Part shown: piece after piece, positions 6,222 through 48,362 of the stretch
Layout of the letters: each line of letters starts with the position of its first letter
How positions within the stretch are numbered: the stretch's first letter is position 1
Assembly (NCBI GenBank): GCA_963789465.1
Contig: CAWBLL010000019.1
Coordinates: 782,173-846,172 of the forward strand
Reading direction: 5' to 3'
Length of the DNA stretch: 64,000 nt
DNA from: an uncultured Bacteroidales bacterium
Lineage (GTDB): Bacteria; Bacteroidota; Bacteroidia; Bacteroidales; VadinHA17
Program-made: the position numbers and the translations under genes
Notes under the pieces: model-generated
What the model was told of the DNA's origin: nothing
What the model saw: the letters and a program-made list of their open reading frames with translations, nothing else
Database searches by the model: none

Positions 6222-6264
6222 AATTTTACAGGATTCTAAAAATATCTAAATTTGAAAATTTAAC

Positions 6265-6276
6265 ATCGTTAACGAT
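6265..6276. promoter_or_regulatory. Perfect 12-bp palindrome ATCGTTAACGAT, candidate operator between divergent uxaC and GH105 operons
   Basis: Direct reading; 44 bp upstream of the uxaC start. Cognate regulator not in window. Confidence 0.35.
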
Positions 6277-6455
6277 CACGAAAATAGGAAATTCAAACCA
6301 ATAATTCAAGTAATATGTCAAATGTCAATATTAAATTTACATCCGTTTTAAAAGACAAAAGACGATTTTTCATATGATTTCCGTAACATTGTTGCAGAAC
6401 TTTCTCAAAAATTTAAAATTTGAAATATACCTGTCAAAACTTTAAATAATATTCA

Positions 6456-7622: not shown

Positions 7623-7627
7623 GAAGA

Positions 7628-7755
7628 CGTCAGGCGTCAGGCATCAGGCATCAGGCAAAAAGTAAGGATGATCGGCAGGCTGATTCCCAATTTGAAGGGG
7701 GCAAGGGGGATGTTTTAGCTCAGGGCTCAAGGCATAAGTCATAAGGTAAAAGTTT
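7628..7755 (+). repeat. Composite dispersed repeat, copy 1: heptamer array (CRTCAGG x4) + about 50-bp core + degenerate heptamers
   Basis: cgtcagg cgtcagg catcagg catcagg caaaaag, then taaggatgatcggcaggctgattcccaatttgaagggggcaagggggatgt; near-identical reverse-complement copy at 46573-46673. Confidence 0.85.
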
Positions 7756-7827
7756 ATGGTAAATAGAAGCGGAAAACCATCAGGACAGGACATCCGCGGA
7801 TTTTAAAAATCTTTAAATAATATAGAT

Positions 7828-8664
7828 ATGAAAACGGAAATAAGATATGCGGCACATCCCGATGATTTCAAAAAATACGATACGGCAAAAATCAGGGAAC
7901 AATTTCTGGTAGAGAATATCTTTATCCCCGACGAGATCTCTCTTGTCTATTCAATGTACGACCGTTTTATCGTTGGCGGAGCGATGCCGGTAACATCGGA
8001 ACTTTCGCTGACCAGCCCGGATGAGCTGAAATCGGGACAATTTCTTGAAAGAAGGGAGATGGGTATCATTAACGTGGGGGGCGTATCTGAAATAGAAGCC
8101 GGAGGACAGCTCTACAATATCGGATTCAAGGAGGCATTATACCTTGGGAAAGGAACCTTTGACGTAGTATTTAGGTCAGTCGATCCCCGTAAACCCGCCA
8201 GACTTTATATAAATTCAGCACCCGCTCATTATATCTGCAGTTCACGTAAGATCACCATGGAGGATGCGGAAAAAACGGTGCTTGGCAACCCTGAATCATC
8301 AAATCATCGCACTGTTAATAAGCTGCTGGTAAACAGTATTATAGAGACCTGCCAGCTTCAGATGGGCATGACGGAACTCAGGACCGGAAGCGTGTGGAAT
8401 ACGATGCCTGTTCATACACATAACAGGCGTATGGAGGCCTATTTTTACTTTGAGGTTCCGGAGCAACAGGCCATCTGTCACTTTATGGGATCTCCCGACG
8501 AAACCCGGCATATCTGGATGCGTAATGAACAGGCAGTACTGTCGCCTTCATGGAGCATTCACAGCGCAGCAGGGACATCCAATTATACTTTTATATGGGG
8601 AATGGCGGGAGAAAACCTGGATTATGGTGACATGGATGTAAGACAACCAGATACACTTAAGTAA
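7828..8664 (+). CDS. kduI: 5-dehydro-4-deoxy-D-glucuronate isomerase
   Basis: DRFIVGGAMP, FLERREMGIINVGG, CQLQMG, WNTMPVHTHNRRMEAYFYF, SPSWSIH, MAGENLDYGDMD motifs. Confidence 0.96.
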   Translation: MKTEIRYAAHPDDFKKYDTAKIREQFLVENIFIPDEISLVYSMYDRFIVGGAMPVTSELSLTSPDELKSGQFLERREMGIINVGGVSEIEAGGQLYNIGFKEALYLGKGTFDVVFRSVDPRKPARLYINSAPAHYICSSRKITMEDAEKTVLGNPESSNHRTVNKLLVNSIIETCQLQMGMTELRTGSVWNTMPVHTHNRRMEAYFYFEVPEQQAICHFMGSPDETRHIWMRNEQAVLSPSWSIHSAAGTSNYTFIWGMAGENLDYGDMDVRQPDTLK

Positions 8665-8766
8665 TGATAACTTTATGACGCTCCTGGTAATAAAATAAGA
8701 ACTTACAAAGAGTAACATGTCGGGTGCCCGGAGTTTAACAGTGGCATTCATTAAACTTTTCATATT

Positions 8767-9561
8767 ATGACGGATTTATTTGATTTAACAGGAAAGGTAG
8801 CCCTTGTAACAGGAGGAACACACGGAATTGGTCTCGCAACAGGCATTCTGCTGGCTAAAGCAGGTGCCAGGGTTTGTGTAAATGACCTCAGTGAGGATAA
8901 GCTTCAGATATGCAGGGAAAGTTTTAAAAAGGAAGGACTGGAGGTGTTTGCCCTGAGATTTGATGTTACTGATGAAAACGATGTTGACAGGGGTGTCGGT
9001 ATCATTGAAAGGAAGGTGGGACCTGTGGATATACTTGTAAATAATGCAGGAATAATAAAACGCATTCCGATCCTGGATATGTCGGTATCTGACTTTAAGC
9101 AGGTGATCGATGTCGATCTGGTTGCGCCCTTGATTGTCTCCAGGAGGGTAGCCCCTGGGATGATCAGCAAACGTTCCGGAAAAATTATCAATATGTGTTC
9201 AATGATGAGCATATATGGTCGTAATACCGTATCAGCCTATGCCTCTGCAAAGGGGGGGCTGAAGCTGCTTACCCAGAATATGACATGCGAATGGGCAAAA
9301 TACAACATTCAGATTAACGGGATCGGACCCGGATACATCGCTACTGCTCAAACAGCCCCTATCAGGGAGAACGGACATCCTTTCAATGACCTTGTCATGA
9401 CCCGAACACCTGCTGGCAGGTGGGGAGAACCGGAGGATGTGGCGAATGCGGTACTGTTTCTTGCATCAAATGCAAGTAATTTTGTCAATGGTCATATTCT
9501 CTTCGTGGATGGAGGAATATTGGCCAATTTCGGATATGTAAAGGGTGAAAATGATCTTTAG
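8767..9561 (+). CDS. kduD: 2-dehydro-3-deoxy-D-gluconate 5-dehydrogenase (SDR, gluconate 5-dehydrogenase family)
   Basis: ALVTGGTHGIG, LVNNAGII, YASAKGG, NGIGPGYI, RTPAGRWG; directly downstream of kduI. Confidence 0.85.
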   Translation: MTDLFDLTGKVALVTGGTHGIGLATGILLAKAGARVCVNDLSEDKLQICRESFKKEGLEVFALRFDVTDENDVDRGVGIIERKVGPVDILVNNAGIIKRIPILDMSVSDFKQVIDVDLVAPLIVSRRVAPGMISKRSGKIINMCSMMSIYGRNTVSAYASAKGGLKLLTQNMTCEWAKYNIQINGIGPGYIATAQTAPIRENGHPFNDLVMTRTPAGRWGEPEDVANAVLFLASNASNFVNGHILFVDGGILANFGYVKGENDL

Positions 9562-9610
9562 CCGGCTTCTGTTCAAGATAAGCAGGACAGACTCTCAGAC
9601 AACCTGAAAA

Positions 9611-10537
9611 TCAGCCTTTATTATCCGGATTATCAGGATGGTCGTCAGAATATGGTTTTGCATAAAGGTCTTCAACTCTCACCCTGCTGATTTCAGGATC
9701 AGTGCTGATTATCTCGCTGGTTATATCCTCCCTGGCTTTTCCATTAAAATAGAGAATACAGGAAAATAAAGGAATCAGAGGCATTGTAAGTGCACCTGCC
9801 AGGGCCGAGAGAATTAAAAATAATGGATTGTTGACCATGTTGACAATTTCAGATGTCTCTCCAGGATTAAAAATTGTCTTTATGAAACTCCCTGTGAAAG
9901 GAAGCAGGATTATCCCTGACAAGATCAGCGACAGAACAATAAGTATGATGATGAATACGGCCACCCATCCAATGTTGGCCCAGAAATTTCTGTGAGCCAG
10001 CGTGATGGTCCTCCTGATAGTCTGGCTTATATTTGGTCCTTCAACCATCATCACGGGTAATATGAAAAGATACAGGGTCATGATATATAAAATTGAAAAA
10101 AACACTCCCACTACAAAAAGCAATATACCCAGTGCAATGGCAATTGAAGCAGCAACTGCCAGTAATACCATGATTATAAGATAAGGTATAAAATACTTCA
10201 TAGATGCGATTACCCCTGCAAAAAAACTGTTTTGTGTGTCGAGAGGACTGAAAATCACATAGTACTGAAGAATAACATTAAAGAACAGATTTACTATTGA
10301 GATTATCAGGATGGGAACGATCACCGCCTTTAATTTTTCCAGTATGAGCATGGGATCAGTGACTGTCGAAAGATCCTGCAGATTGACAAATGTGGAAACA
10401 TATTGCAATACCAGTGACATGGCAAATGACAGAATAAAAAGAGGCAGGAATTTTTTTTTGTAAAAATCCCATAATGAATTCATTGCACTGTCAATATTGT
10501 GAGGCTTATAAAGAGGATGATTGCTGAATTGATCCAT
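9611..10537 (-). CDS. Hypothetical multi-pass membrane protein (about 6 TM)
   Basis: 308 aa with long hydrophobic stretches; GPNISQTIRRTITLAHRNFW resembles membrane-anchor domains of glycerophosphodiester-phosphodiesterase-like proteins. Confidence 0.7.
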   Translation of the reverse strand: MDQFSNHPLYKPHNIDSAMNSLWDFYKKKFLPLFILSFAMSLVLQYVSTFVNLQDLSTVTDPMLILEKLKAVIVPILIISIVNLFFNVILQYYVIFSPLDTQNSFFAGVIASMKYFIPYLIIMVLLAVAASIAIALGILLFVVGVFFSILYIMTLYLFILPVMMVEGPNISQTIRRTITLAHRNFWANIGWVAVFIIILIVLSLILSGIILLPFTGSFIKTIFNPGETSEIVNMVNNPLFLILSALAGALTMPLIPLFSCILYFNGKAREDITSEIISTDPEISRVRVEDLYAKPYSDDHPDNPDNKG

Positions 10538-10774
10538 GATATTTCAAGATTTTTTGCCAAATCTAAGCAATAATATTTAATTATCCACTCAGTCAATGAG
10601 GTGCTTTCAACATTATGCCAAGGTTAACGTCACCCTGCTTTTTGTCACATAATGCAATAATTAAAGAATAAAATTATCAAATTTGTACTCTATTGTTAAT
10701 TAATTGATACATATTGGCTGACAAATCTTTTTTAATAAGAATATTTGATAAATATAATTAATACGACCAAGAAG

Positions 10775-11839
10775 ATGAAACTAAGAAAATTAAGCATACC
10801 GGTAGTAATTACCGTTTTGATTGGATTTGGCCTGGTATCGTGTACAGGCGGTGCATCTAAAAAGGGTGGGCATTCAGGCGTGGAATATTACAGGGCTCTT
10901 CAGTTCAGTGAAACACCGTATGATATTGAAAGGGGGACGCATCCTGTTACTCCTGATCAGGCTGCCTCGGTAAACAATTATAAATTTACCTATGACAATT
11001 CAGGACATCTCCTTTCAGTGGAATTTGGCCGCAACAACATTCTCCTTGATTATTCATCGATGGGAGGTGCGTCTAAAATCACATATGAGTATAAGGACAA
11101 TAAACAGATAAAAAGGTTCTTCAATAAGAATAATGAAGAGATTGAATCATCAGGCGTATATACTGCTGAATATACTCTGGATAAGAATGGATTAAGGACC
11201 GGATTGAAATTTTACGGGAAGGATGGATCGCCTGTGGAAAACAGGAATAAGATTCACTCTTATGACTGGAGTATCCTGGATAATGGTATGGTCAGGGAGC
11301 TCAGATATAATCTGGCGAATGAGGAGGTTGTTATGAATCCTTTCTGTCCATTCTATGAGTTGCGATTCAGTTACAATGACAAGGGATACATGACAAGAAT
11401 GGCCAACTATAAGGCCGATACGCTATATAATTGCACTGCAGAAAACTGCGGCGATATTGGAGTCTCTTACTTTTCATTTATGCCAAATAAAAACGGCGAT
11501 AATGAAGAGTTCTCTGTTTTTAATGTATTCGGACAAATGTCAAATCTCTACTGGGGATGGTCAAAGAGGGTAACTAAATTTGATGAGAACGGCTATCCGG
11601 TCGAGATCCAAGTCTATGATCAGGATGACGAATACGTAGGAGGGAAGCTTACCCCGGTAGAAGTTCATACTTACGATACTCACGGAGCTCTGACCGAAGT
11701 CAGAAACATGGATAAGGACAGGAATCTGATCAACGACGAGGAAAGCGGGATCGCGATCACTGAATACAAATATGATGAACTTGGAAACAGAACGGAGACC
11801 TTAAAATTTGACAAGGACAGGGTTCCTGTGAATATCTGA
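10775..11839 (+). CDS. Lipoprotein with YD/RHS-like repeats
   Basis: Start at ATG 10775 gives signal MKLRKLSIPVVITVLIGFGLVS-C; repeated Y-x-Y-D-x-x-G motifs (FTYDNSG, YTLDKNG, FSYNDKG, KFDENG, HTYDTHG, YKYDELG). Confidence 0.75.
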   Translation: MKLRKLSIPVVITVLIGFGLVSCTGGASKKGGHSGVEYYRALQFSETPYDIERGTHPVTPDQAASVNNYKFTYDNSGHLLSVEFGRNNILLDYSSMGGASKITYEYKDNKQIKRFFNKNNEEIESSGVYTAEYTLDKNGLRTGLKFYGKDGSPVENRNKIHSYDWSILDNGMVRELRYNLANEEVVMNPFCPFYELRFSYNDKGYMTRMANYKADTLYNCTAENCGDIGVSYFSFMPNKNGDNEEFSVFNVFGQMSNLYWGWSKRVTKFDENGYPVEIQVYDQDDEYVGGKLTPVEVHTYDTHGALTEVRNMDKDRNLINDEESGIAITEYKYDELGNRTETLKFDKDRVPVNI

Positions 11840-11859
11840 TCCCTGCATAAAATCCTGAT

Positions 11860-12906
11860 ATGAATAAAAAATATATTCCGGCACTTGCCGCTGTATTCTT
11901 TTTACTGGTTTTTCTTACAGGTTGCAATGGGAATAAAACCGGAAATAAACCAGGTGGTGAGCATGTTTCCATCAGTGCAGAAAAAGCTCCCGTAATAATT
12001 GGAAAGGAGACCACTCTGCTTTTAAAAGACCTGAAGGAAAATGGCGATTATGTCAATAGCCAGGTCTTCCCGTCATTAATTAAGGCATCGATAGTTCACG
12101 ACAATATAGGTAAAAATATATTGATAGTTGATCTGAGATCACCTGAAAATTATTCAAAGGGGCATATCAAAGGGGCTGTCAATAAACGCTTTGAAGATCT
12201 TCCGGCATATTTTGAAACAGGTATCAAACCATTTCAGTATGACAAGATCGTTATGGTATGTTCTGATGGTCAGCTCTCCAGCTACACTACATGCCTGCTC
12301 AGGCTCATGGGATATGGAAATGTTTATGCCATGAGATGGGGAATGAGTGCCTGGAACAAGAGTTGTGCAAAGGAAGGGTGGCTGAAAGGTGTTTCATCCA
12401 GGCATGAACCCGATATTGAGACTAAGGTGAATGAGAAACCTGATGCCAGGGAGATGCCTGAACTGGGTACCGGAAAAAGTACCGGTGAGGATATAGGTGC
12501 AGCAAGATTTCACAGGCTGTTTGCCGAGGGTACTGGCAATATCTTAATATCAGCCGATGAAGTATTCTCTGATCCTCAGAAATACTTCATTGTAAATTAT
12601 GAAAGAAAAGATAAATATGAAGATGGCCATATCCCGGGGGCTGTCAGATATAAACCTGAAGCAACGCTGGGATATACTGATGAGCTGGCTACAATTCCTA
12701 CTGATAAAACTATAGTCGTCTATTGTGGCACAGGTCATAACTCTGGTTTCGCAACAGCATACCTGAGATTATTCGGATATGATGCCAGAACTTTGAGATT
12801 TGGCAACAATAGTTTTATGTATGACAAGATGGGCAGGGAGAGAGTTAAGCTGTCATGGCTGCCTTTCACGGAGGCTGAGGTGAATGATTTTGAGACTGTA
12901 AAATAG
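11860..12906 (+). CDS. Tandem-rhodanese (sulfurtransferase) lipoprotein
   Basis: Lipobox FLTG-C; two rhodanese domains (VDLRSPENYSKGHIKGA and YEDGHIPGA), each with an active-loop Cys (VCSDGQ, YCGTGH). Confidence 0.88.
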   Translation: MNKKYIPALAAVFFLLVFLTGCNGNKTGNKPGGEHVSISAEKAPVIIGKETTLLLKDLKENGDYVNSQVFPSLIKASIVHDNIGKNILIVDLRSPENYSKGHIKGAVNKRFEDLPAYFETGIKPFQYDKIVMVCSDGQLSSYTTCLLRLMGYGNVYAMRWGMSAWNKSCAKEGWLKGVSSRHEPDIETKVNEKPDAREMPELGTGKSTGEDIGAARFHRLFAEGTGNILISADEVFSDPQKYFIVNYERKDKYEDGHIPGAVRYKPEATLGYTDELATIPTDKTIVVYCGTGHNSGFATAYLRLFGYDARTLRFGNNSFMYDKMGRERVKLSWLPFTEAEVNDFETVK

Positions 12907-12927
12907 CTCTGTTATTATTTTAGATTA

Positions 12928-13398
12928 TCAGATTTCCGGTCTGACAGTTGTGTCGGGCCGGAATTCGTTTTTAAAATCTTCACCAGTATTAACATAAGAG
13001 AAAATATACAGGTTTTTAAAACCGGTCTGACTGAGTATCATCCATAACCTTGCCGAAAGTGCCGGATCAGAAGAGGACAACAATACCGGTCCATTATGTT
13101 CCCTGATCCTTTTAAGGTTCGATTTGTTAATGAGGGAATCCGGTGAAATATGGATTAATGTAACGGTTCCGTCATTCATCTCCTTCATGCTGTCGTCCAG
13201 ATCAACTATTAGTTTCTGACCGGGCAGGTTTCCCATTCCCTGTTCCGTTACTACATTTGAAAGATCGAATGATGGTGCAGCCCATTTTTTTGCATTATAT
13301 TTAAATGTATCGTTGCTGCAGGTTTTTAAGACCAGTAGGATAAGCAATGGCAGAACTGCCGCAATTATTATTCTGTATTTCTTTACCAGGTTCATCAT
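12928..13398 (-). CDS. Membrane-anchored degenerate rhodanese-like protein
   Basis: N-terminal hydrophobic anchor; LIVDLD and ARLWMILSQTGFKNLYIF resemble the rhodanese fold; no Cys in the active-loop position (VLLSSSDP). Confidence 0.6.
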   Translation of the reverse strand: MMNLVKKYRIIIAAVLPLLILLVLKTCSNDTFKYNAKKWAAPSFDLSNVVTEQGMGNLPGQKLIVDLDDSMKEMNDGTVTLIHISPDSLINKSNLKRIREHNGPVLLSSSDPALSARLWMILSQTGFKNLYIFSYVNTGEDFKNEFRPDTTVRPEI

Positions 13399-13412
13399 TA
13401 AGCCATTTTATT

Positions 13413-14024
13413 TCATTCACAGCCCCCGTCAAGCTTTTTGGCGGCAATGTGTTGCGCATCTATGAATTTCTGCTTCAGGCTGTCAGGAAGGCTGTTGATC
13501 TCAGTGAACATTCTCCTGGCCTGCAATCTGGTCTCAAAGAGTGCGTTTTCCCTTGCTGATATCCTTTCTCCCGTGAAGGTGCTGTTCATTACCTTGTTGA
13601 ACCATTCGTTCAGCCCCCCCTTCATTACATAAGTATTGTTGTATTTCAATCCCCTTGCAATAGTCAGGGCATAGTTTGAGTACAAATCTCCATTGGAATA
13701 AAATATATATTTTGCCTTACCGCTGTTTAATATCGCTTCAGGATCCTGGTCAAGAAACTCATTATAAGGTATATTGACCGAACCGGGAATATTGAATGCC
13801 ATGAATTCTTTCCTTGACCTGAGATCAATGAGTAGAACCGTATTATCTTCTGAGGCAACTACTCTGGCCACCTGGTCCGCAGTAAGATAGCTCTCCGGGT
13901 CAAGCATTTCACCCAGGACCTTATGAGGACTTGCATTGAATGATCTGTTCGACGAAAGTGGCAGCAGGGCCAGTATCAGGCCAAATGTCAGAAGTATAAC
14001 TGATATTTTTTCTCTTGGATTCAT
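13413..14024 (-). CDS. Membrane-anchored rhodanese-like protein with C-terminal GGC motif
   Basis: LIDLRSRKEFMAFNIPGSVNIP and YVMKGGLNEW rhodanese motifs; active-loop Cys replaced (IFYSNG); ends KKLDGGCE. Confidence 0.8.
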   Translation of the reverse strand: MNPREKISVILLTFGLILALLPLSSNRSFNASPHKVLGEMLDPESYLTADQVARVVASEDNTVLLIDLRSRKEFMAFNIPGSVNIPYNEFLDQDPEAILNSGKAKYIFYSNGDLYSNYALTIARGLKYNNTYVMKGGLNEWFNKVMNSTFTGERISARENALFETRLQARRMFTEINSLPDSLKQKFIDAQHIAAKKLDGGCE

Positions 14025-39244: not shown

Positions 39245-41266
39245 TTGTTAAATATCTTTTTTGCAATAGTTGCTTTTGTCCTTATAAGCGTTTTGTTTCT
39301 AAATATCAGAGGCAAAGGCATTATTACCTTGTCAGCAGTCTTTGTAATTGCTGCACTTAGCAGTGTGTATGCAGTGAGGGCTCTTTCCGGAAATACCTTT
39401 GAGGCATTATTCAGGGGAAATGAGCTTTTCGGAAATGTCTTGCTGAAAATAGATTCATTGTCGGCCTGGTTTATCCTGATTATAAACTTCACTATGCTTA
39501 CCGGTTCGTTCTACGGTTTCAGCTATATGAAGCAATATGCCGGAAGGAAGAGCGATATTACCCTTCATTGCGTCGCATTTATTCTTCTTCAGGTCTCCAT
39601 GATCGGAATCTGCACGGTTCAGAATGGATTTGTATTTATGATATTATGGGAACTGCTTGCGATATCCGTATTTATTCTTGTAATATTTGACCATGGCAGG
39701 AATGATACAGTAAGAGCTGGATTCAATTATCTGGTGCAGTCGCATTTAAGCATAGTTTTCATTATGCTTGGATTCATTTATGTCGGTTACAAAACTGGCA
39801 GCTATAACTTCGATGCGATTTCAGATTTTTCCAGACAGCAGTCGACACTTGCAGGTACAACACTATTCCTCTGTTTCTTTATCGGTTTTGCCTTGAAATC
39901 CGGCTTTGTCCCTTTCCATACATGGTTGCCATACGCTCATCCTGCAGCTCCTTCACACGTTTCAGCAATAATGTCGGGCGTTGTAATAAAAATCGGCATC
40001 TATGGTATCCTCAGGATGTTGTTGCTGATCAGAACAGATTATACCACAATAGGTTATATAATTCTGATCATTTCTGTACTGACCGGGATCTATGGAGTTA
40101 TGCTTGCTATCATTCAGCATGATCTCAAAAAATTACTCGCATATCATAGTATCGAGAACATTGGAATCATTGGTATCGGGATAGGAGTTGGCTGTATCGG
40201 ATTGGGAGCGTCAAACAAATGGATGGCGATTCTCGGCTTCTCGGGTGCCTTGCTTCATACGCTTAACCATTCACTGTTCAAATCACTATTATTCTATAGC
40301 ACAGGTAATGTATTGCAGGCTGTTCATACTGTAAATGTAGAAAAACTTGGCGGATTAATTAAAAAGATGCCTCATACTGCCCTTCTCTTTCTGGCTGCAG
40401 CCATTGCAATTTGCGGTTTGCCTCCGCTTAACGGGTTTATCTCCGAATTTCTCATCTATGGAGGACTTTATAACTGGCTATACAGTGCCTCACTGTTATC
40501 CCTGATAACAATAGTGTTTTCAATTGTTGGTCTGGTTCTTATCGGAGGCCTGGCCATATTGTGTTTCACCAAAGCTTTCGGGATAGTTTTTCTTGGTAAT
40601 TCACGCTTTGTGGATATATCTGAGGTAAAGGAGACTGGAGCCGGGCAGCTGATACCAATGTATGCTGCCGCTTCCCTGATGATCATGATAGGTCTTTTCC
40701 CTTCGTTATTTATCAGTATGCTTCAAAGGCCCGTGAATCTTTTTACCCATGATGTTGTTTTCAATCTGAATCTCATAAAGGTCGGGTCAATTGATTCCCT
40801 TGAGGTAATTAACAGGTTATTCCTGGTATTTATTCTTCTTGTCCTTTTCATCATGCTCCTGAGAAAGATGGCAGGGAGGAAAAAGATAATTCATTCTGGT
40901 CCGACATGGGGTTGCGGCTATTCTGCTGCTGGCAGCAAGCTTCAGTATACTGCTAATTCTTTTGTGAGGAGTTATTCAAAACTTGCTAAGCCGATACTCG
41001 ATATTGAAAAGAAAGAGATGGAGATTACAGAAGTATTTCCTCTTGAAAAACGTTATGAAACAGAGTCTTATGATAAGATGGAGAGAATACTTATCGACAG
41101 GCCTGTCGGACTTATTAACAAATTTCTGGAGTATTTTACGTTTTTGCAGAACGGAAGGCTCCAACGATATATTCTGTATGGCATAATTTTCATTTCGGCT
41201 CTTGTCATAGTGCCGCTTGTTTTAGAAAAGATAACCATATTGCTGCATTTTTTAAATAATCTGTAA
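39245..41266 (+). CDS. hyfB: Ehr/Hyf-type antiporter-like membrane subunit (HyfB/NuoL-MrpA family)
   Basis: LWELL, ALKSGFVPFHTWLPYAHPAAPSHVSA, KKLLAYHSIENIGII, NHSLFK, SEFLIY, TWGCGY. Confidence 0.88.
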   Translation: MLNIFFAIVAFVLISVLFLNIRGKGIITLSAVFVIAALSSVYAVRALSGNTFEALFRGNELFGNVLLKIDSLSAWFILIINFTMLTGSFYGFSYMKQYAGRKSDITLHCVAFILLQVSMIGICTVQNGFVFMILWELLAISVFILVIFDHGRNDTVRAGFNYLVQSHLSIVFIMLGFIYVGYKTGSYNFDAISDFSRQQSTLAGTTLFLCFFIGFALKSGFVPFHTWLPYAHPAAPSHVSAIMSGVVIKIGIYGILRMLLLIRTDYTTIGYIILIISVLTGIYGVMLAIIQHDLKKLLAYHSIENIGIIGIGIGVGCIGLGASNKWMAILGFSGALLHTLNHSLFKSLLFYSTGNVLQAVHTVNVEKLGGLIKKMPHTALLFLAAAIAICGLPPLNGFISEFLIYGGLYNWLYSASLLSLITIVFSIVGLVLIGGLAILCFTKAFGIVFLGNSRFVDISEVKETGAGQLIPMYAAASLMIMIGLFPSLFISMLQRPVNLFTHDVVFNLNLIKVGSIDSLEVINRLFLVFILLVLFIMLLRKMAGRKKIIHSGPTWGCGYSAAGSKLQYTANSFVRSYSKLAKPILDIEKKEMEITEVFPLEKRYETESYDKMERILIDRPVGLINKFLEYFTFLQNGRLQRYILYGIIFISALVIVPLVLEKITILLHFLNNL

Positions 41267-42172
41267 ATGCTGAGTCTGATTCTTATATTGTCTGCCGCAG
41301 TTATTTTTCCCGGAATAATTCTCAGGACCAAGAGTATTGCTTCAGGTCGTAAGGGACCGGGTATAATGCAGCCGTTGAAGGATATTGTCAGGTTATTCAG
41401 AAAGGGATCTGTGTACAGCGAAACTACGAGCATTATATTCCGAATCGCACCTGTTATAAGCTTTTCATCGGTGGTTATGGCTTGCCTTGTGATACCTTTC
41501 AGCAGCTACAAGGGTGTGGTTAGTTTTGACGGCGATTTCATATTTTTTGCATACATACTTGCTCTGGGACGATTTTTCATCATTATCTCGGCTCTGGATA
41601 CGGGAAGCAGTTTTGAAGGAATGGGAGCAAGCCGTGAAGCACTCTTTTCCATTTTTGCAGAACCGGCGTTTTTTATCCTGATCGGCTCGTTTGCCCTGTT
41701 TACTGACAACACCTCTTTCTATAAAATATTTTCTATTCTCCATCTGAACTCGTCAATAACCTATACGCTGGGTGTACTTGCAGCCATGGTATTCATTATG
41801 CTCTCAATGATTGAAAACAGCCGTATGCCCGTCGATGATCCGAAGACTCATCTTGAACTAACAATGATACATGAGGTTATGGTGTTGGATAACAGCGGAT
41901 TTGATCTCGGATTAATACTTGCTTCGGGATATTTGAAATTTGCCATCTATGGTGCCATTATCGCTGATTTCTTTATCGCAGGTTTATCTGTACAATTTGC
42001 CATACCGCTCTTCCTGCTGATCCAGGTTGTTGTCGCGGTTTCAGCAGGGATGATAGAATCATTTATGGCCAGGTTCAGAATGAATCACAACCCTCAGTTT
42101 ATCCTGGTATTATCATCTGTCAGCTTCCTGATTTTCATGGGCGTATTGCTTGTTCTTGAAAAATTTGCCTGA
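41267..42172 (+). CDS. hyfC: Ehr/Hyf-type NuoH-like subunit (HyfC/HycD)
   Basis: GRKGPGIMQP, LDTGSSFEGMGASRE, ENSRMPVDDPKTHLELTMIHE. Confidence 0.88.
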   Translation: MLSLILILSAAVIFPGIILRTKSIASGRKGPGIMQPLKDIVRLFRKGSVYSETTSIIFRIAPVISFSSVVMACLVIPFSSYKGVVSFDGDFIFFAYILALGRFFIIISALDTGSSFEGMGASREALFSIFAEPAFFILIGSFALFTDNTSFYKIFSILHLNSSITYTLGVLAAMVFIMLSMIENSRMPVDDPKTHLELTMIHEVMVLDNSGFDLGLILASGYLKFAIYGAIIADFFIAGLSVQFAIPLFLLIQVVVAVSAGMIESFMARFRMNHNPQFILVLSSVSFLIFMGVLLVLEKFA

Positions 42173-42183
42173 AAAATAAAACC

Positions 42184-42816
42184 ATGACAAACGTATTGCT
42201 TATCATATTCATAATTAGCTTATTATATTTTTCAATCGCGAACAGGATTAGTACCTATGTCAGATTACTTGCCTTACAGGGTGTCATTCTATTCGGCGTC
42301 ACCTTTCTCCATCTTCAGGAGGTAAGAACATGGAACCTGATCCTGATTCTTCTGGAAACGGTGATTTTTAAGACAATTGCCGTGCCATATTTCCTGTCAT
42401 ACATTATTAAAAGAAACAAGATAACGCGTGAGGCAGAGCCTTATCTGCCAAATTTTATCTCATTGCTGATCATTACCATGATTGTAGTTGCAACCGTATT
42501 GCTTGCCAACTCAATTCACGATAGCCATCTTGATAAGCTTTTCTTTATAGTTTCACTGTCAACTCTTTTCACAGGGCTCTATTTTATTGCTTCCAGGAAA
42601 AAGATCATTACACATGTAATGGGATATCTGATTATTGAAAATGGAGTATTCGTACTCTCCCTTGCAGTGGGGAATGAGATGCCAAATCTTGTGAACCTGG
42701 GCATTATGCTAGATGTGTTTGCCAGCGTACTCATTCTCGGTGTTTTTCTGAATAAGATCGGTGATGTTTTCAGGGATGCGGATGTTGATCAGCTGAGTGA
42801 TCTGAAAGATTATTAA
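42184..42816 (+). CDS. hyfE: Ehr/Hyf-type HyfE membrane subunit
   Basis: LALQG, IFKTIAVP, GYLIIENG, LGIMLD motifs. Confidence 0.85.
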   Translation: MTNVLLIIFIISLLYFSIANRISTYVRLLALQGVILFGVTFLHLQEVRTWNLILILLETVIFKTIAVPYFLSYIIKRNKITREAEPYLPNFISLLIITMIVVATVLLANSIHDSHLDKLFFIVSLSTLFTGLYFIASRKKIITHVMGYLIIENGVFVLSLAVGNEMPNLVNLGIMLDVFASVLILGVFLNKIGDVFRDADVDQLSDLKDY

Positions 42817-42824
42817 ACAAAAAG

Positions 42825-44255
42825 ATGATGACCGCACTATATCTGATAGGTTCATTTTTGATAGCATGTCTTCTGCTGGCAAACCGCAGTACAACTATTA
42901 ACAATATGCTGGTTATCGCTTTTGCCGTTCTGCAGACCTGTTTTACATTTTCATCCTGTCTCAGTTACCGGACCACGGCACTTGAATATTTTACATTCGA
43001 TTCCCTTGGATTACTCCTTATGCTGACTTTAAGCGTCATAACCATTCCTGCCCTGATTCATAGTCATATCTATATAACCGGGCATGATGAGACCCCGGAG
43101 TCAAGGAGTATTTATTTTTCTTCACTTATCCTTCTCATCACCTCAATAACTGCTGCATATATTTCAAATCATATTGCCGTAATCTGGATCTTTACGGAGC
43201 TGACAACCTTATCTGCATCAATGCTGATATATCATCACAGGAACAAGCTTGCTCTGGAAGGCACCTGGAAATATGTATTTATCTGTGCAATAAGCATTAC
43301 GTTTGTCTTCATCGGTATTCTCTTTCTCAGCCTGTCACTGCAGCATGCCGGATCGCAAGATCTCTCCTTCGCCAATCTGCTTGCATATAGAGACAGGCTG
43401 AATCCATTCTGGCTTAAGCTCTCTTTCCTGTTTATATTCACCGGATACACAGCAAAAATGGGTCTTGTACCTATGTATACCGCAGGAATTGATGCAAAGG
43501 ATATTGCACCTGCTCCCGCCGGAGCCCTTCTTGCAACTGTTCTCATGAATATGGGTTTTGTTGCCATTTTCAGATTCTACACTATTATAGCGCAAACCAG
43601 CCTGTTTCACTGGACCAACATGGTTATAATCATTGCAGCCACCCTGTCAATATTTTTCGCAACTGTTTACATGACAAGAGTGGTGAATATCAAACGGATG
43701 TTTGCCTATTCCGGCATAGAACACATGGGGATAGTGATGTTGGGTATTGCTGCCGGGGGTATCGGATATTATGCAGCCATACTTCATATTATCCTGCATG
43801 CCCTTGCCAAGTCGGGTCTCTTTTTTCAGTTTAATCAGCTCTACAGGACTTTTCAGAGCAAAAGCATCCAACATGCCGGTAATTATTTTAAATATAATCC
43901 TTCCGGAGCTATTGTCCTGTTGCTCGGATTTATGAGCGCAGCGGCAATGCCCCCTTCAGGATTGTTCGTCAGCGAATTTCTGATCTTCCGGTCGCTGTTC
44001 GAGGCCAATCATATTATACTGCTTCTGACTGTTCTGCTGCTCCTGACAATTGTGATCTGGGCTTTCGGGAAAAATATATTCAAAATATTATTCATACCGC
44101 TTCCGGGACTGGACGAAACTCTCATCCCAAAAATTAGTCCCTGGGAATCACTTTCCCAGTATCTTCTGATCTTTGCAGCAATTTGGCTGGGGTTTTTTCC
44201 TCCTGATTTATTTGTTAATCTGATTAAGGATGCCGTTAAAATTCTACCACTCTGA
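42825..44255 (+). CDS. hyfF: Ehr/Hyf-type antiporter-like subunit (HyfF)
   Basis: IWIFTELTT, ALEGTWKY, GYTAKMGLVP, KRMFAYSGIEHMG, PPSGLFVSEF. Confidence 0.88.
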   Translation: MMTALYLIGSFLIACLLLANRSTTINNMLVIAFAVLQTCFTFSSCLSYRTTALEYFTFDSLGLLLMLTLSVITIPALIHSHIYITGHDETPESRSIYFSSLILLITSITAAYISNHIAVIWIFTELTTLSASMLIYHHRNKLALEGTWKYVFICAISITFVFIGILFLSLSLQHAGSQDLSFANLLAYRDRLNPFWLKLSFLFIFTGYTAKMGLVPMYTAGIDAKDIAPAPAGALLATVLMNMGFVAIFRFYTIIAQTSLFHWTNMVIIIAATLSIFFATVYMTRVVNIKRMFAYSGIEHMGIVMLGIAAGGIGYYAAILHIILHALAKSGLFFQFNQLYRTFQSKSIQHAGNYFKYNPSGAIVLLLGFMSAAAMPPSGLFVSEFLIFRSLFEANHIILLLTVLLLLTIVIWAFGKNIFKILFIPLPGLDETLIPKISPWESLSQYLLIFAAIWLGFFPPDLFVNLIKDAVKILPL

Positions 44256-44256
44256 T

Positions 44257-45756
44257 ATGAACCATATAACTCTAAAGAATCATCAGTCGGTCCCAGTCAG
44301 TTCTATTCCGGAAAGTGATTACGATGGTTTTCTGGATCTGAATACCAGCTTGCTTGACGGGCATCCGGAAAGACACTGTGTCCTTTATGTCGCCTATAAT
44401 TCTGATAATGGGATAAGGCTTATCTGCTGCATTGCAGATGATTCAGATGGGAGCATCTTGATCTCATCATCGTATGCTGACACGACCAGGCATTTCCGGT
44501 CTTTAACGGCAATAAACCTCTCATTTGAGAAATTTGAACGTGAGATACATGAGAATTTTGGAATTCTATACTCTGATCATCCATGGTTAAAGCCTCTCCG
44601 TTATCCGCAAAGCAGTGCAGGCAAGGCGGAGAAAATATCAGACTACCCCTTCTTCAGCGTAAGTGGTGATGAGATCCATGAGGTTGGTGTTGGTCCTGTT
44701 CATGCCGGTATTATTGAACCTGGTCATTTCAGATTTGTCTGCAATGGGGAACAGATCCTTCATCTGGAAATTCAACTTGGCTATCAGCACAGGGGGATAG
44801 AAAACTTGTTCCTTGAGAGGAAGAAGCTTCTTCAGAGAACCATCCTTGCTGAATCAATTGCCGGAGACAGCGCTGTCGGACATACAACAGCATTTGCATA
44901 TCTTTGGGAAAGTCTCTGTGGCATTCCTCAGACACCGGCAATATTATATTCAAGGACTCTTGCGCAGGAGCTGGAACGTATTGCCATACATACGGGTGAT
45001 CTCAGTGCGATATGTACCGATGTAGCTTATCAGCTTGGAAGTTCCGTGTTCGGAAGGCTCAGAACACCTCTTATTAATTTCTTTCAGGAATGGTGCGGTA
45101 ACCGCCTGGCCAAAGGGTTGATTAGGGGAGGATCTGATCCCTATCCCTTCACCGGAGATCTGGCCGGCCGGCTGAATATGGTACTTGATGAATTCGAGCC
45201 TGATTTTACAGAAATGAATAATGAGCTTTCAAAAATGCCAAGCTGTCTTTCCCGATTCGAGAGGACGGGTACAATGAGTTACAACCGGCTGCTGACTATT
45301 GGGGCTGTTGGAATGACAGCGAGGATGAACGGGTTGAACAGGGATATCCGAAGTTCCCATCCATACGGCCTGTACAATGAGATTGCCCATTCTCCTGTAA
45401 TTAAACATCATGGCGACGTATATTCACGGGTTCAGATCAGAAAGGAAGAGGTCAGACAATCGGTGTCATATATAAGGCAACTTCTTGGAAAAATTCCTGG
45501 AAAAACTGAATTTGAAGGAATGAAGCTTAAACCAAGGGGAAAGATGTTCGGAATTTCTCTTACCGAAGGATGGAGAGGAGAAATATGCCATGCTGCAATA
45601 ACGGATAAGAATGGGGATTTGCTTCTATATAAAGTAAAGGATCCCTCATTCCATAACTGGCTTGCCCTGGCTCTTGCCGTCAGGAATAATGAAATTTCGG
45701 ATTTTCCTGTCTGCAATAAGAGTTTCAACCTTTCCTATTGCGGGCACGACCTTTAA
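44257..45756 (+). CDS. Ehr large subunit (HycE/HyfG-like NuoC+NuoD fusion) lacking NiFe-binding motifs
   Basis: VGPVHAGIIEPGHFRF, GYQHRG, ELERIA, EGWRGE, KVKDPS; L1 site reads ESIAGDSAVGH, L2 site reads KSFNLSYCGHDL. Start taken as ATG 44257. Confidence 0.9.
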   Translation: MNHITLKNHQSVPVSSIPESDYDGFLDLNTSLLDGHPERHCVLYVAYNSDNGIRLICCIADDSDGSILISSSYADTTRHFRSLTAINLSFEKFEREIHENFGILYSDHPWLKPLRYPQSSAGKAEKISDYPFFSVSGDEIHEVGVGPVHAGIIEPGHFRFVCNGEQILHLEIQLGYQHRGIENLFLERKKLLQRTILAESIAGDSAVGHTTAFAYLWESLCGIPQTPAILYSRTLAQELERIAIHTGDLSAICTDVAYQLGSSVFGRLRTPLINFFQEWCGNRLAKGLIRGGSDPYPFTGDLAGRLNMVLDEFEPDFTEMNNELSKMPSCLSRFERTGTMSYNRLLTIGAVGMTARMNGLNRDIRSSHPYGLYNEIAHSPVIKHHGDVYSRVQIRKEEVRQSVSYIRQLLGKIPGKTEFEGMKLKPRGKMFGISLTEGWRGEICHAAITDKNGDLLLYKVKDPSFHNWLALALAVRNNEISDFPVCNKSFNLSYCGHDL

Positions 45757-45775
45757 TAAGTCAACTGAAGAAATA

Positions 45776-46531
45776 ATGATAAGGACAATTAAAATATTAT
45801 ATCACCAGGGGAAACAATATATTCCCGATCTGACAACAGCAACAGTTCCGGGTATTTTCAGAGGACGACCTGAAATAAGCTGGACAAAGGCTGAGGGAGA
45901 AGCCATAGCTGAAATTTGCCCGGTAAATGCAATATATACTGCACCTTTAAGGATTGATATGGGAAGATGCACATTCTGCGGTGAGTGCTCACGATTATTC
46001 CCCGGTAAAATACGGTTTACTACGGACTACAGGCTCTCGTCGAACAACAGGAAGAGCCTGGTGATCTCCGAAGGCTCACATGAGCCTGTCAGACTCGATC
46101 CGGATCTTATACGAAAAGAGATCCGCAGCTGTTTCAAGGGCTCTCTCAAACTACGGCAGGTTTCGGCAGGAGGGGACAATAGTTGTGAGCTTGAGCTGAA
46201 TGCATGCAGCAATGTCAATTTTGATATGGGACGTTATGGCATTGAATTTGTTGCTTCACCACGCCATGCCGACGGGATTGTCATTACCGGCCCACTGTCC
46301 TCTAATATGGCTGAACCTCTTCAGATGACATACGACGCAATACCTGAACCCCGGATCATAGTGCTTGCCGGTACTGATGCTATTAGCGGAGGTATTTTTG
46401 AAGGAAGTCCCGCTCTTGACAGAAAATTTATTGAACAAAATCATATTGATCTGTATGTACCGGGAAATCCTATACATCCTCTGACTTTCATTAACGGGAT
46501 CACCGATCTCGTGGGAATAAAATCCCGGTAA
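45776..46531 (+). CDS. Ehr small subunit (NuoI-like ferredoxin fused to HycG/NuoB-like domain) with degenerate Fe-S motifs
   Basis: ICPVNAI and CTFCGEC; ASPRHADGIVITGP; GGDNSCE, GTDAISGG, PGNPIHP. Start taken as ATG 45776. Confidence 0.88.
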   Translation: MIRTIKILYHQGKQYIPDLTTATVPGIFRGRPEISWTKAEGEAIAEICPVNAIYTAPLRIDMGRCTFCGECSRLFPGKIRFTTDYRLSSNNRKSLVISEGSHEPVRLDPDLIRKEIRSCFKGSLKLRQVSAGGDNSCELELNACSNVNFDMGRYGIEFVASPRHADGIVITGPLSSNMAEPLQMTYDAIPEPRIIVLAGTDAISGGIFEGSPALDRKFIEQNHIDLYVPGNPIHPLTFINGITDLVGIKSR

Positions 46532-46572: not shown

Positions 46573-46673
46573 ACATCTCCCTTACCCCCTTCAATGGGAA
46601 ATCAGCCTGCCGATCATCCTTCTTTTTGCCTTACTCCTTACTCCTGACGCCTGACGCCTGACGCCTGATGCCT
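46573..46673 (-). repeat. Composite dispersed repeat, copy 2 (heptamer array + about 50-bp core)
   Basis: Minus strand: catcagg cgtcagg cgtcagg cgtcagg agtaagg agtaagg caaaaag aaggatgatcggcaggctgatttcccattgaagggggtaagggagatgt; starts right after the ggt stop. Confidence 0.85.
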
Positions 46674-48362
46674 TCAATATCCCGCAGCCTGTCCGTCTTT
46701 CCTCGATTCTGAAGCGCCGTACCAGACCTTGTTTTTGGCATCCCACATAATTGCCTGATATCCACCGTAACCTCCCAGATCCCACTGCACTTTATGTCCC
46801 ATATTTATCAGTTTTTGAATAACCTCCCAGCGGAATCCGGATTCCAAAAGCAGGGTCCCTCCGTCAGTCATCTGCTGACCAGTAGGTTCGGATGAGCCGA
46901 CATGATGAATTCTGGGAGCATCCCCTGCTTCCTGAAGATTCATCTTGAAGTCGACCAGATTGATAACTATCTGTGCCTGTCCCTGGGGCTGCATATCTCC
47001 CCCCATTACCCCAAAACTGATCCAGGGTTTTCCTTTTTTTGTGATGAAAGAGGGGATTATTGTGTGAAAAGGTCTTTTTCCCGGAGCATACATATTATTG
47101 TGGCCTTCGGACAGACTGAACATTTCACCGCGATCCTGGAGAACAAATCCGAGTCCGGTCGGACACATTCCTGATCCCATGCCCCGGTAATTGCTTTGTA
47201 TAAGTGATACCATATTACCGAATCTGTCTGCTACAGTCAGGTATACGGTATTGCCGGCCTCAATTTTACCACTGTCATAAATATTTGCCGCCTTTTCAGG
47301 ATTAATGAGTTTTCTTCTTTCGACAGCATACTTTTTTGATATCAGCTTTTCCACGGGTATATCGTTGAATCGTGGATCGGCATAATACCTGGCACGGTCC
47401 TCAAAAGCCAGTTTTTTGGCCTCTGTAAACACATGAATGTATTCGGCAGATCCAAATCCCATTGAAGCTATATCAAAGCCTTCGAGTATATTAAGGATCT
47501 GAAGGGTAGCTATACCTTGTCCGTTTGGAGGCAGTTCCCAGACTTCTACTCCCCTGTAGGTTGATTTGACGGGTTCCACCCATTCTGAATGATGACGGGC
47601 AAGGTCCTCATACGAAAGAAACCCCCCCTGCTTCTTCATGAAAGCACCAATGTCCCGTGCGATACTGCCCCTGTAGAACTCATTTCTTCCACCTCGTACG
47701 ATTTTTTCAAGAGTCGATGCCAGTTGTGGATTTTTAAAGATTGTGCCTTTTGCCGGAGACTTTCCTCCTGGCATATACACCTCTTTTATATTCGGATAGT
47801 CCTTGAGAATTTCAAGGTTTTTTGCAAGGGAGTAAGCTATAACTTCGGTAACCGGGAAACCATCCCTGGCATAATTAATTGCAGGCTGCAAGATATCCTT
47901 CATTGGAAGCCGGCCAAACATCTCATTCATCTCATACCAGCCGTCTACACAACCCGGAACTGAAACAGGCAAAGGACCATACGACGGTATAAGCTCATAC
48001 CCGTTATCCCTGAAATATTCCATCTTAAGAGATCTCGGTGATCTGCCGCTGCCATTCAAACCATAAAGCTTTTCCTTGTCGGCGCTCCATATCAGAGCAA
48101 AAATATCACCACCGATACCGGCTCCCGTCGGTTCTACAACACCCAGAACTGCATTGGCTGCAATTGCAGCATCTATCGCATTGCCCCCTTTCTTTAAAAT
48201 GTCAAGTGCAACCTGAGTTGCCAAAGGGTGACTAGTAGCGGCCATCCCGTTACGTGCAATGATTTCTGACCTGGTGGCAAACTCCCTTCCCGTGATACGG
48301 TCCTGAGAGAACAACCCGGCATGAATGGCCAATAAGATCGTCAGAAAGAATATTCTCGTCAT
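46674..48362 (-). CDS. ggt: Gamma-glutamyltransferase, exported
   Basis: GGNAIDAAIA, EPTGAGIGGD, ELPPNGQG, GNTVY (Thr nucleophile), PGKRPFHTIIP, GGDMQPQG, SRKDG. Confidence 0.94.
   Translation of the reverse strand: MTRIFFLTILLAIHAGLFSQDRITGREFATRSEIIARNGMAATSHPLATQVALDILKKGGNAIDAAIAANAVLGVVEPTGAGIGGDIFALIWSADKEKLYGLNGSGRSPRSLKMEYFRDNGYELIPSYGPLPVSVPGCVDGWYEMNEMFGRLPMKDILQPAINYARDGFPVTEVIAYSLAKNLEILKDYPNIKEVYMPGGKSPAKGTIFKNPQLASTLEKIVRGGRNEFYRGSIARDIGAFMKKQGGFLSYEDLARHHSEWVEPVKSTYRGVEVWELPPNGQGIATLQILNILEGFDIASMGFGSAEYIHVFTEAKKLAFEDRARYYADPRFNDIPVEKLISKKYAVERRKLINPEKAANIYDSGKIEAGNTVYLTVADRFGNMVSLIQSNYRGMGSGMCPTGLGFVLQDRGEMFSLSEGHNNMYAPGKRPFHTIIPSFITKKGKPWISFGVMGGDMQPQGQAQIVINLVDFKMNLQEAGDAPRIHHVGSSEPTGQQMTDGGTLLLESGFRWEVIQKLINMGHKVQWDLGGYGGYQAIMWDAKNKVWYGASESRKDGQAAGY

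Follow-up and report, generated by a model that had tools for sequence, protein, structure and literature searches.

The stretch of DNA considered here, referred to as the window, comprises 64,000 nucleotides from an uncultured Bacteroidales bacterium (contig CAWBLL010000019.1, positions 782,173 to 846,172). It carries a six-gene operon on the + strand, at 39245-46531, whose products resemble both complex I and the group 4 [NiFe]-hydrogenases. Judged by gene composition and ligand motifs, the complex is a Bacteroidota-type Ehr (energy-converting-hydrogenase-related) complex, a small-subunit variant of a known, uncharacterised family. The variation lies in EhrS, the small subunit encoded by the last gene of the operon. 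Here two aspartates and an asparagine stand in place of three of the four cysteines of the proximal iron-sulfur cluster. Among the relatives of EhrS, the two exchanges of cysteine for aspartate have arisen at least twice.

The Ehr operon

All six genes have intact open reading frames (ORFs), and in Pfam and NCBIfam all of them fall into the complex I / group 4 hydrogenase superfamily. The genes are the following.

39245..41266, + strand: EhrA, HyfB/NuoL/MbhH-like antiporter-like subunit, 673 residues (Proton_antipo_M, E 3.7e-56; hydrogenase-4 subunit B model, E 2.4e-152)
41267..42172, + strand: EhrB, NuoH/HycD/MbhM-like coupling subunit, 301 residues (NADHdh, E 1.1e-33; HycD, 7z0s_D, E 7e-24)
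42184..42816, + strand: EhrC, HyfE-like membrane subunit with a NuoK-like C-terminus, 210 residues (NCBIfam hydrogenase-4 membrane subunit, E 6.7e-21; Oxidored_q2, E 1.2e-5)
42825..44255, + strand: EhrD, HyfF/NuoN-like antiporter-like subunit, 476 residues (Proton_antipo_M, E 5.8e-42)
44230..45756, + strand: EhrL, NuoC-NuoD fusion, large subunit lacking the NiFe site, 508 residues (Complex1_49kDa, E 8e-32; Complex1_30kDa, E 4e-5)
45776..46531, + strand: EhrS, NuoI-NuoB (HycF-HycG) fusion, 251 residues (Pfam, NCBIfam and phmmer against PDB chains)

Ligands of the small subunit

EhrS joins a ferredoxin-like half to a NuoB-like half. The NuoB-like half matches Oxidored_q6/NuoB at residues 136-244 (E 5e-18). 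In phmmer searches against PDB chains, residues 127-243 align to MbhJ of P. furiosus (6cfw_J, E 5e-20) and residues 115-248 to HycG of E. coli (7z0s_G). Matches to the ferredoxin-like half are weak but consistent: residues 19-98 resemble both NuoI (E 3.5e-7) and HycF (E 7e-7) in NCBIfam, and Pfam adds a weak Fer4 match at 59-72. An AlphaFold model of the subunit (predicted local distance difference test score, pLDDT, 90.4; predicted template modelling score, pTM, 0.88) has HycG, MbhJ and complex I PSST/NuoB as its best structural matches.

In the alignment to MbhJ and HycG, the four cysteines of the proximal cluster correspond to D134, C137, D201 and N231 of EhrS. The motif sgsCNGCdiE is replaced by aggD134-N-S-C137-elE, GaC by G-T-D201, and PGC by P-G-N231. 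These sites, together with the cysteines that remain in the ferredoxin-like half, lie at the following positions.

46175..46186, + strand: former CxxC of the proximal (N2) cluster, D134-N-S-C137 (alignment to MbhJ/HycG)
46376..46378, + strand: former third ligand (GxC), D201 (alignment to MbhJ/HycG)
46466..46468, + strand: former fourth ligand (PGC), N231 (alignment to MbhJ/HycG)
45917..45988, + strand: retained [4Fe-4S] ligand set, consisting of C48 (45917-45919), C65 (45968-45970), C68 (45977-45979) and C71 (45986-45988)

The codons are GAC for D134 (46175-46177), GAT for D201 and AAT for N231, each of which would need two substitutions to become TGY.

In the ferredoxin-like half, I47-C48-P49 is followed by C65-T-F-C68-G-E-C71 and L74-F75-P76. 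Compared with relatives that have eight cysteines, T37, G41 and I44 (the three cysteine positions of motif 1) and F75 stand in for the other four, with no insertion or deletion. In the 2x[4Fe-4S] ferredoxin fold, each cluster is held by three cysteines of one motif and the Cys-Pro cysteine of the other. By this rule, C48, C65, C68 and C71 make up exactly one complete [4Fe-4S] site. The N6b cluster of T. thermophilus Nqo9 is presumably bound by C63, C98, C101 and C104, which would make the cluster retained in EhrS the one adjoining N2. Indirect support for this placement comes from relatives that have N2 together with a single ferredoxin cluster, every one of which retains the equivalents of C48, C65, C68 and C71. 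EhrS has neither the eight cysteines (two CxxCxxCxxxCP motifs) of HycF and NuoI nor the four of a proximal cluster.

An earlier note on this DNA had claimed that three of the four proximal cysteines are gone, that their codons lie two bases from Cys, and that one of the two ferredoxin clusters is lost. The alignment, the DNA itself and the single remaining ligand set confirm these points. Its further claim, that the NiFe site is missing as well, is borne out by the large subunit.

The large subunit

EhrL has ESIAGDSAVGH where HycE has DRVCGICGFAH, and NLSYCG where HycE has DPCYSC. The four NiFe ligand positions, as aligned to HycE, are A211, S214, S502 and G505. No cysteine occurs at any of them in 71 EhrL orthologues, in which the columns hold A/T/S/V, T/S/A, S and G, respectively. 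Maturation features are missing too. EhrL ends in YCGHDL with no maturation extension, and a search of the source genome, which is 92.5% complete, found no HypD (PF01924) with positive controls.

The protein is nevertheless highly constrained. Of its 508 columns, 125 are invariant or deviate in at most one of the 71 orthologues. Near-invariant residues surround the former active site (E163, H166, R168, E208, D213, H218), many of them charged, and the C-terminus (SDFP.CNKSF.LSY.GHDL) is conserved throughout.

Some cysteines of EhrL deserve mention. The pair H49-C50 in the NuoC-like domain (44374-44379) and C171 (44740-44742) are kept in at least 70 of the 71 Bacteroidota-type orthologues. H49-C50 is absent from Wallbacteria and from high-GC relatives, and is thus a clade-specific His-Cys pair. 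C171 was rejected as a substitute ligand because it is also found in the Wallbacteria protein, whose complex retains the proximal cluster. C495 and C504 were rejected because they vary.

Conservation of the former ligand sites

Conservation was assessed in two sets. The close set holds the 120 closest database homologues of EhrS (76-85% identity). The species set holds 80 loci from species-representative genomes (61-77% identity), giving an alignment of 81 sequences. It spans seven or more families of Bacteroidota, with members from Bacteroidales, Rikenellaceae (Alistipes putredinis), Paludibacter, Prolixibacteraceae, Lentimicrobiaceae, Saprospiraceae, Chitinophagaceae, Flavobacteriales and Cytophagales (the cultured Chryseolinea serpens DSM 24574), and also includes one metagenome-assembled genome (MAG) from Melioribacteraceae (Ignavibacteriota).

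D134 and N231 are invariant in both sets (120/120 and 81/81). D201 is Asp in all 120 close homologues and in 79 of the 81 species sequences, the other two having Glu. The four retained cysteines are likewise present in every sequence of both sets, with TGT and TGC mixed. C137, by contrast, varies: Cys, Thr and Ser are found in 81, 30 and 9 of the close homologues, and Cys, Ala and Ser in 78, 2 and 1 of the species sequences. On this variation, C137 is dispensable. Nor is there an alternative set of cysteines within EhrS in either set. C144, in the sequence ELNACS, is Cys, Ala or Thr in 100, 16 and 3 of the close homologues, and Ala, Cys, Ser or Thr in 29, 27, 18 and 7 of the species sequences.

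Synonymous codons are freely mixed in the species set: GAT 42 and GAC 39 at D134, GAT 63 and GAC 16 at D201, AAT 45 and AAC 36 at N231. These residues are therefore held by selection and not by recent ancestry. Smoothed column entropy points the same way. It is lowest (0.02-0.35 bits) at residues 127-140, 157-171, 199-204 and 228-239, which correspond to the three motifs that once supplied ligands, along with the SPRHADG core. It peaks at about 2 bits at residues 35-47, the stretch of the former distal cluster, and such hypervariability speaks against any conserved surface at which an electron donor would dock. Judged from codons and columns, then, the state of D134, D201 and N231 is ancient and under purifying selection. 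Across relatives, EhrS is 61-77% identical and EhrL 48-71%, and most orthologues of EhrA fall at roughly 50-57%.

The pattern might in principle reflect gene decay or an artefact of assembly or sequencing. The only point in favour of this is P0121, the representative of a 50% cluster, in which the CxxCxxC motif is missing. Ranged against it are six intact ORFs, the agreement of hundreds of independent assemblies, variation that is synonymous only, and the two substitutions that separate each codon from Cys. The conservation in both homologue sets and the codon data refute this explanation, which is given next to no credence. P0121 was also considered as proof that the last cluster is dispensable, and was rejected, since its match to the window begins only at residue 57 and the translation of its CxxCxxC region looks frameshifted. 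P0148 was rejected alongside it as evidence for a cluster-free form; a VAV pattern is common to both.

The earlier note had expected the combination D/C/D/N to be conserved in the clade through selection and not decay, and to be shared by related Bacteroidota. Conservation holds for D134, D201 and N231, apart from the two Glu at D201, and fails for C137, which is Thr, Ser or Ala in some. The 81 species-level sequences show that the change is no lineage-specific lesion. Selection is supported by the codon mix, the entropy minima and a second, independent lineage with the same Cys-to-Asp change. The note had also named C144 as an alternative cysteine that could refute its case, and the variability of that residue excludes it.

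Origin of the aspartate state

A HMMER search of 1.84 billion cluster representatives returned 3848 relatives of EhrS. Full-length fused NuoI-NuoB proteins among them occur in three states. Some have all twelve cysteines, some have one ferredoxin cluster and all four proximal cysteines (CCCC), and some have one ferredoxin cluster and D-x-D/E-x.

An example of the second state is the small subunit of a Wallbacteria MAG (P0128, locus L091), which has CCCC with a single ferredoxin cluster and lies in the same six-gene synteny as in the window. The Wallbacteria large subunit is 42% identical to EhrL, has no NiFe cysteines and shares the C-terminus CNKSFNLSYCGHDL. Because Ehr of this type is without the NiFe site yet keeps CCCC, loss of the proximal cluster is placed after loss of NiFe. 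The likely order, as read from these motifs, is that the NiFe site and the distal cluster were lost first and the proximal cluster afterwards.

A maximum-likelihood tree was built from 69 sequences, 22 of them Asp-type. The ligand columns were left in, which biases against a result of two origins. The Asp-type proteins nevertheless fall into two separate groups. Clade 1 contains the Bacteroidota/Ignavibacteriota sequences and DxDN/H relatives. Its support in the Shimodaira-Hasegawa-like approximate likelihood ratio test (SH-aLRT) is 98, and it lies within a group, supported at 99, that also holds the CCCC sequences P0127 and P0128. Clade 2 (DVDS, DIDD, DDDS, DEDS; SH-aLRT 86) has P0240, a CCCC sequence, as its sister (support 93), and both lie in a group supported at 97 whose other members are CCCC sequences. 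Next to each Asp-type clade, either as sister or in the same polytomy, stands a sequence that combines CCCC with one ferredoxin cluster (P0127/P0128 and P0240). Forcing the 22 Asp-type rows into a single clade costs 98 units of log-likelihood and is rejected by the approximately unbiased (AU) test (p=0.0013).

Because the AU test rejects a single clade, the change of the first and third cysteines to Asp must have occurred at least twice independently. Such convergence favours selection over decay. It is regarded as the most informative new result of the analysis.

Two relatives show further features. In L092, a member of clade 2 with 68.5% G+C, the large subunit is also without NiFe ligands and the operon is rearranged. 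At 4958-13906 the order is DUF190, NuoH-like, HyfE-like, antiporter-like, L, S and HyfB-like, followed by a universal stress protein and a second DUF190. In the Wallbacteria locus L091, a gene for an Rrf2-family (Fe-S-sensing) regulator lies directly after the small-subunit gene, at 10976-11410.

The membrane arm

The residues associated with ion translocation are intact. EhrB retains the HycD/NuoH loops GRKGPG..QP..D, LDTGSSFEG.GASREA and IENSRMPVDDPKTHLEL. In EhrA, compared with MbhH, the Glu of transmembrane helix (TM) 5 (LWE), the Lys of TM7 (LKSG), the His/Lys of HxxxHSLFK and SEF in TM12 are retained. EhrD likewise retains the TM5 Glu (FTE), the TM7 Lys (AKMG), HALAKS and SEF in TM12. 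Alignments to MbhH and to subunit H of MBS thus find the functional core of antiporter-like subunits (TM5 Glu, TM7 Lys, TM8/11 His/Lys, TM12 Lys/Glu) in place.

Comparison with known systems

Ehr complexes have been described as lacking NiFe ligands and having an unknown function (PMC10284858, PMC6349859, PMC4378227). No function has been shown for any of them, for instance for EhrA-D/EhrL/EhrS of Geobacter sulfurreducens, GSU0739-45 (PMC7894505, PMC10284858, PMC6349859, PMC4378227). The window complex agrees with this family in operon composition, in a large subunit without RxCGxCxxxH and DPCxxCxxH/R, and in the lack of a maturation extension and of HypD. As in Geobacter, HyfB-, NuoH-, HyfE- and HyfF-like membrane genes are followed by the large and small subunits, and the NiFe CxxC motifs are missing. 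It differs from the other Ehr complexes compared, Wallbacteria L091 and Cloacimonadota P0127 (both CCCC), in having no proximal cluster (D/x/D/N). Measured against a full ferredoxin set, the distal cluster of EhrS is gone as well.

For every subunit, the closest counterparts in sequence and in structure come from the complexes 7z0s (HycG) and 6cfw (MbhJ), and the membrane arm is of the hydrogenase type. EhrL shares with their large subunits EPGHFRF and the framework RGIE..AE..G..H. Unlike these complexes, the window Ehr lacks the NiFe ligands as well as both the proximal and the distal cluster, and HycF and HycG are fused in one polypeptide. Its genome has no HypD, and its operon has no formate dehydrogenase or ferredoxin-type partner. 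A group 4 [NiFe]-hydrogenase has four NiFe cysteines, and EhrL has none of these.

Another point of comparison is MBS/MBX of P. furiosus. This is also derived from a hydrogenase, has given up NiFe and has kept the ion-translocating arm. MBS still has its proximal [4Fe-4S] cluster, the presumed site of polysulfide catalysis. In the window EhrS the ligands of that cluster are gone.

The complex also resembles the Q-module of complex I (NuoB/NuoD/NuoI/NuoH) in its homologous fold, subunit arrangement and NuoH coupling loops. It differs in having no N2 ligands and no N-module. The quinone-ligating residues of complex I are taken to be His38 and Tyr87 of Nqo4 (T. thermophilus numbering). H166 of EhrL aligns with His38, but G212 aligns with Tyr87.

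Finally, the two antiporter-like subunits of MrpA/MrpD type, with canonical Glu and Lys and no obligatory redox input encoded, recall the Mrp antiporters. Unlike Mrp, the window Ehr has NuoH-, NuoD-, NuoC-, NuoB- and NuoI-like parts and is without MrpE, MrpF and MrpG. No genes for these three lie in the operon, and MnhG (PF03334) is absent from the source genome. Since a defining feature of each was looked for and found wanting, the complex does not qualify, as far as its motifs and genes can tell, as a [NiFe]-hydrogenase, as complex I or as an Mrp antiporter.

Distribution and surroundings

Within the window's genus 18 of 25 genomes carry Ehr, against only 14 of 301 drawn evenly from the phylum. 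Its distribution is phylogenetically broad but patchy. The earlier note had called the family widespread but uncharacterised, which is right as to its breadth across the phylum and too generous as to its frequency. Its description of an undescribed system was overstated, as the complex belongs to the named Ehr family of the papers cited above (PMC10284858, PMC6349859, PMC4378227). Annotations routinely give Ehr genes a wrong name, either “Ni,Fe-hydrogenase III small subunit” or “NADH:ubiquinone oxidoreductase”. The sequence itself was found in one weak soil-metagenome DNA run only and in zero RNA runs.

Wherever the contig is long enough, the 80 loci of the species set keep the order A-B-C-D-L-S, with the exception of Alistipes (L089) and a Bacteroidaceae MAG (L087). 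In these (Alistipes putredinis, L089 8431-10753, and L087), EhrL-EhrS stand alone among housekeeping genes (PAP2, Dus, cyclophilin, GldB). A homologue of EhrB (62% identity) is encoded on a separate contig (L093), so that the operon is split into a peripheral-arm and a membrane-arm locus. ORF clustering over the 80 loci turned up nothing beyond the six operon genes, their antisense shadow ORFs and, in some places, one more antiporter-like gene; no redox partner is conserved near the operon.

In the window's genus, the two-by-two table of MnhG against Ehr presence reads 7/10/5/3. MnhG of the relatives was rejected as a plain Mrp gene because it adjoins a second NuoB-like gene in a cluster of Mbh/Mbx type. 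In many relatives this second gene (32-33% identity to EhrS) lies about 7.5 kb from MnhG (G008:C7:10446-18261 and G024:C9:121051-129125, among others). The arrangement suggests a putative Mbh/Mbx-type, Mrp-linked complex. It is present in all five of the reasonably complete genus members without Ehr.

The source genome is 5.69 Mb long and of Bacteroidales type, and the window is part of its contig 19. A second, ordinary NuoB lies at G000:C19:1414790. Within the operon, the ORF of EhrL as listed overlaps EhrD by 26 nucleotides. The true start is probably ATG 44257 (M10; MNHITLKNHQ), directly after the EhrD stop, because orthologues begin at the residue aligned with M10. For EhrS, a mechanical ORF from TTG 45662 (289 residues) was rejected; the homologues are all 248-257 residues long and begin at ATG 45776, which bears out the coordinates of the earlier note. 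Directly downstream of EhrS, past the stop of a convergent ggt gene, there is a short array of CTGACGC heptamers (ctcctgacgcctgacgcctgacgcctgatgcc) at 46600-46680.

Possible mechanisms

The electron wire to the interface of the large and small subunits appears, from its missing ligands, to be cut on both sides of the single remaining cluster. It follows that the complex would not be driven in the canonical way, by substrate reduction via the proximal cluster. The earlier note had offered a metal site with oxygen or nitrogen ligands, a redox-gated antiporter and a sensor-coupled transporter as options, and the sequence favours none of the three over the others.

One model, preferred here although somewhat less than half of the probability is assigned to it, is that the Asp pair acts as a charged coupling element. 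A [4Fe-4S]2+ cluster with four thiolates carries a net charge of -2, and two aspartates likewise carry -2. In this model, a buried carboxylate pair would take over from the cluster in providing the charge at the coupling site. Protonation or cation binding, in place of an electron, would switch that charge. The complex would thereby become a secondary translocator of cations and protons, similar to Mrp, with the peripheral arm as a gate and the single cluster as a structural element or a redox sensor. The model is favoured by the ligand substitutions, their conservation under purifying selection, the lack of a substitute cysteine in EhrS, the order of losses and the two origins. The intact membrane arm, the lack of a linked partner, the absence of HypD and the variable residues 35-47 also fit.

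Several observations weigh against this coupling model. The invariance of C48, C65, C68 and C71 over deep time would also fit continuing electron transfer. That their cluster is the one beside the proximal site, the equivalent of N6b, is a probable assignment, based on the presumed Nqo9 ligands and on the same four cysteines being kept by relatives with two clusters. The roughly 125 invariant or near-invariant residues of EhrL look more like a catalytic or binding pocket than a gate, and Asp/Asp/Asn could merely fill the cavity that the cluster vacated. As for novelty, the open papers on Ehr discuss the ligands of the large subunit only and not those of the small one; Coppi 2005 and Marreiros et al. 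2013 may already cover them.

The main alternative is that the complex still pumps by redox chemistry, over a shortened wire. The single [4Fe-4S] cluster would take electrons directly from ferredoxin or flavodoxin and hand them to a substrate, or to a mononuclear metal (Fe or Mn) bound by D134, D201, N231 and residue 137. Substrate or metal would lie in the space of the proximal cluster at the large/small-subunit interface. The four cysteines are invariant in both independent Asp-type lineages as well as in both homologue sets, and EhrL has a densely conserved polar pocket. Moreover, Asp, Asp/Glu and Asn/Ser/His/Asp are possible oxygen or nitrogen ligands, and such sets recur in distant subfamilies (DTDN, DNDH, DIDD, DDDS, DEDS, DVDS). 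Relatives with CCCC and one ferredoxin cluster show that the family once used a two-cluster wire. However, a donor or acceptor module is linked in none of the 80 loci, and the surface of the lost distal cluster is the least conserved region of EhrS. Some Asp-type relatives have Ala at the third or fourth ligand (DIEA, DVEA, DCAA, DAAD) and residue 137 varies, so that a strict four-ligand metal site is not universal. Hard oxygen and nitrogen ligands are also atypical of low-potential redox centres. A shortened wire is viewed as less likely than the coupling model, if the strongest of its rivals.

It may also be that Asp/Asp/Asn are structural filler, satisfying backbone amides and the packing of NuoB, with the arm as an assembly scaffold and the cluster purely structural. 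The fold of EhrS is predicted confidently without a cofactor (pLDDT 90.4), residue 137 is free to vary, and one packing constraint could be mirrored by the convergent Cys-to-Asp changes in both lineages. Yet EhrS is among the most conserved subunits of the operon, and its strongest constraint falls exactly on the former ligand motifs. The near-invariant residues at the former active site of EhrL show far more constraint than a scaffold requires. This explanation is considered improbable.

The coupling model has a wider form. At least two lineages of complex I and hydrogenase relatives may have independently turned a redox-driven pump into a redox-independent one, in which a buried Asp pair of equal formal charge, standing in for the terminal [4Fe-4S] cluster and switched by a proton or a cation, drives or gates the path through NuoH and the antiporter-like subunits that reduction of cluster or substrate drives in complex I. 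In this extended form the idea is speculative and, on present evidence, unlikely to be correct.

Implications

For complex I and its hydrogenase relatives, it is still a matter of debate how a change of charge at the Q/N2 site leads to ion pumping. In the Ehr described here, the coupling and pumping apparatus is under strong selection. The NiFe, proximal and distal sites have been discarded, and carboxylates have been put in place twice. The window Ehr would thus offer a direct test of whether the coupling module can run without electron transfer. The complex is found in cultured organisms, among them Chryseolinea serpens DSM 24574 and Alistipes putredinis from the human gut. Even if it proved to be an ordinary secondary antiporter, or an enzyme that still performs redox chemistry, this would be the first function for Ehr.

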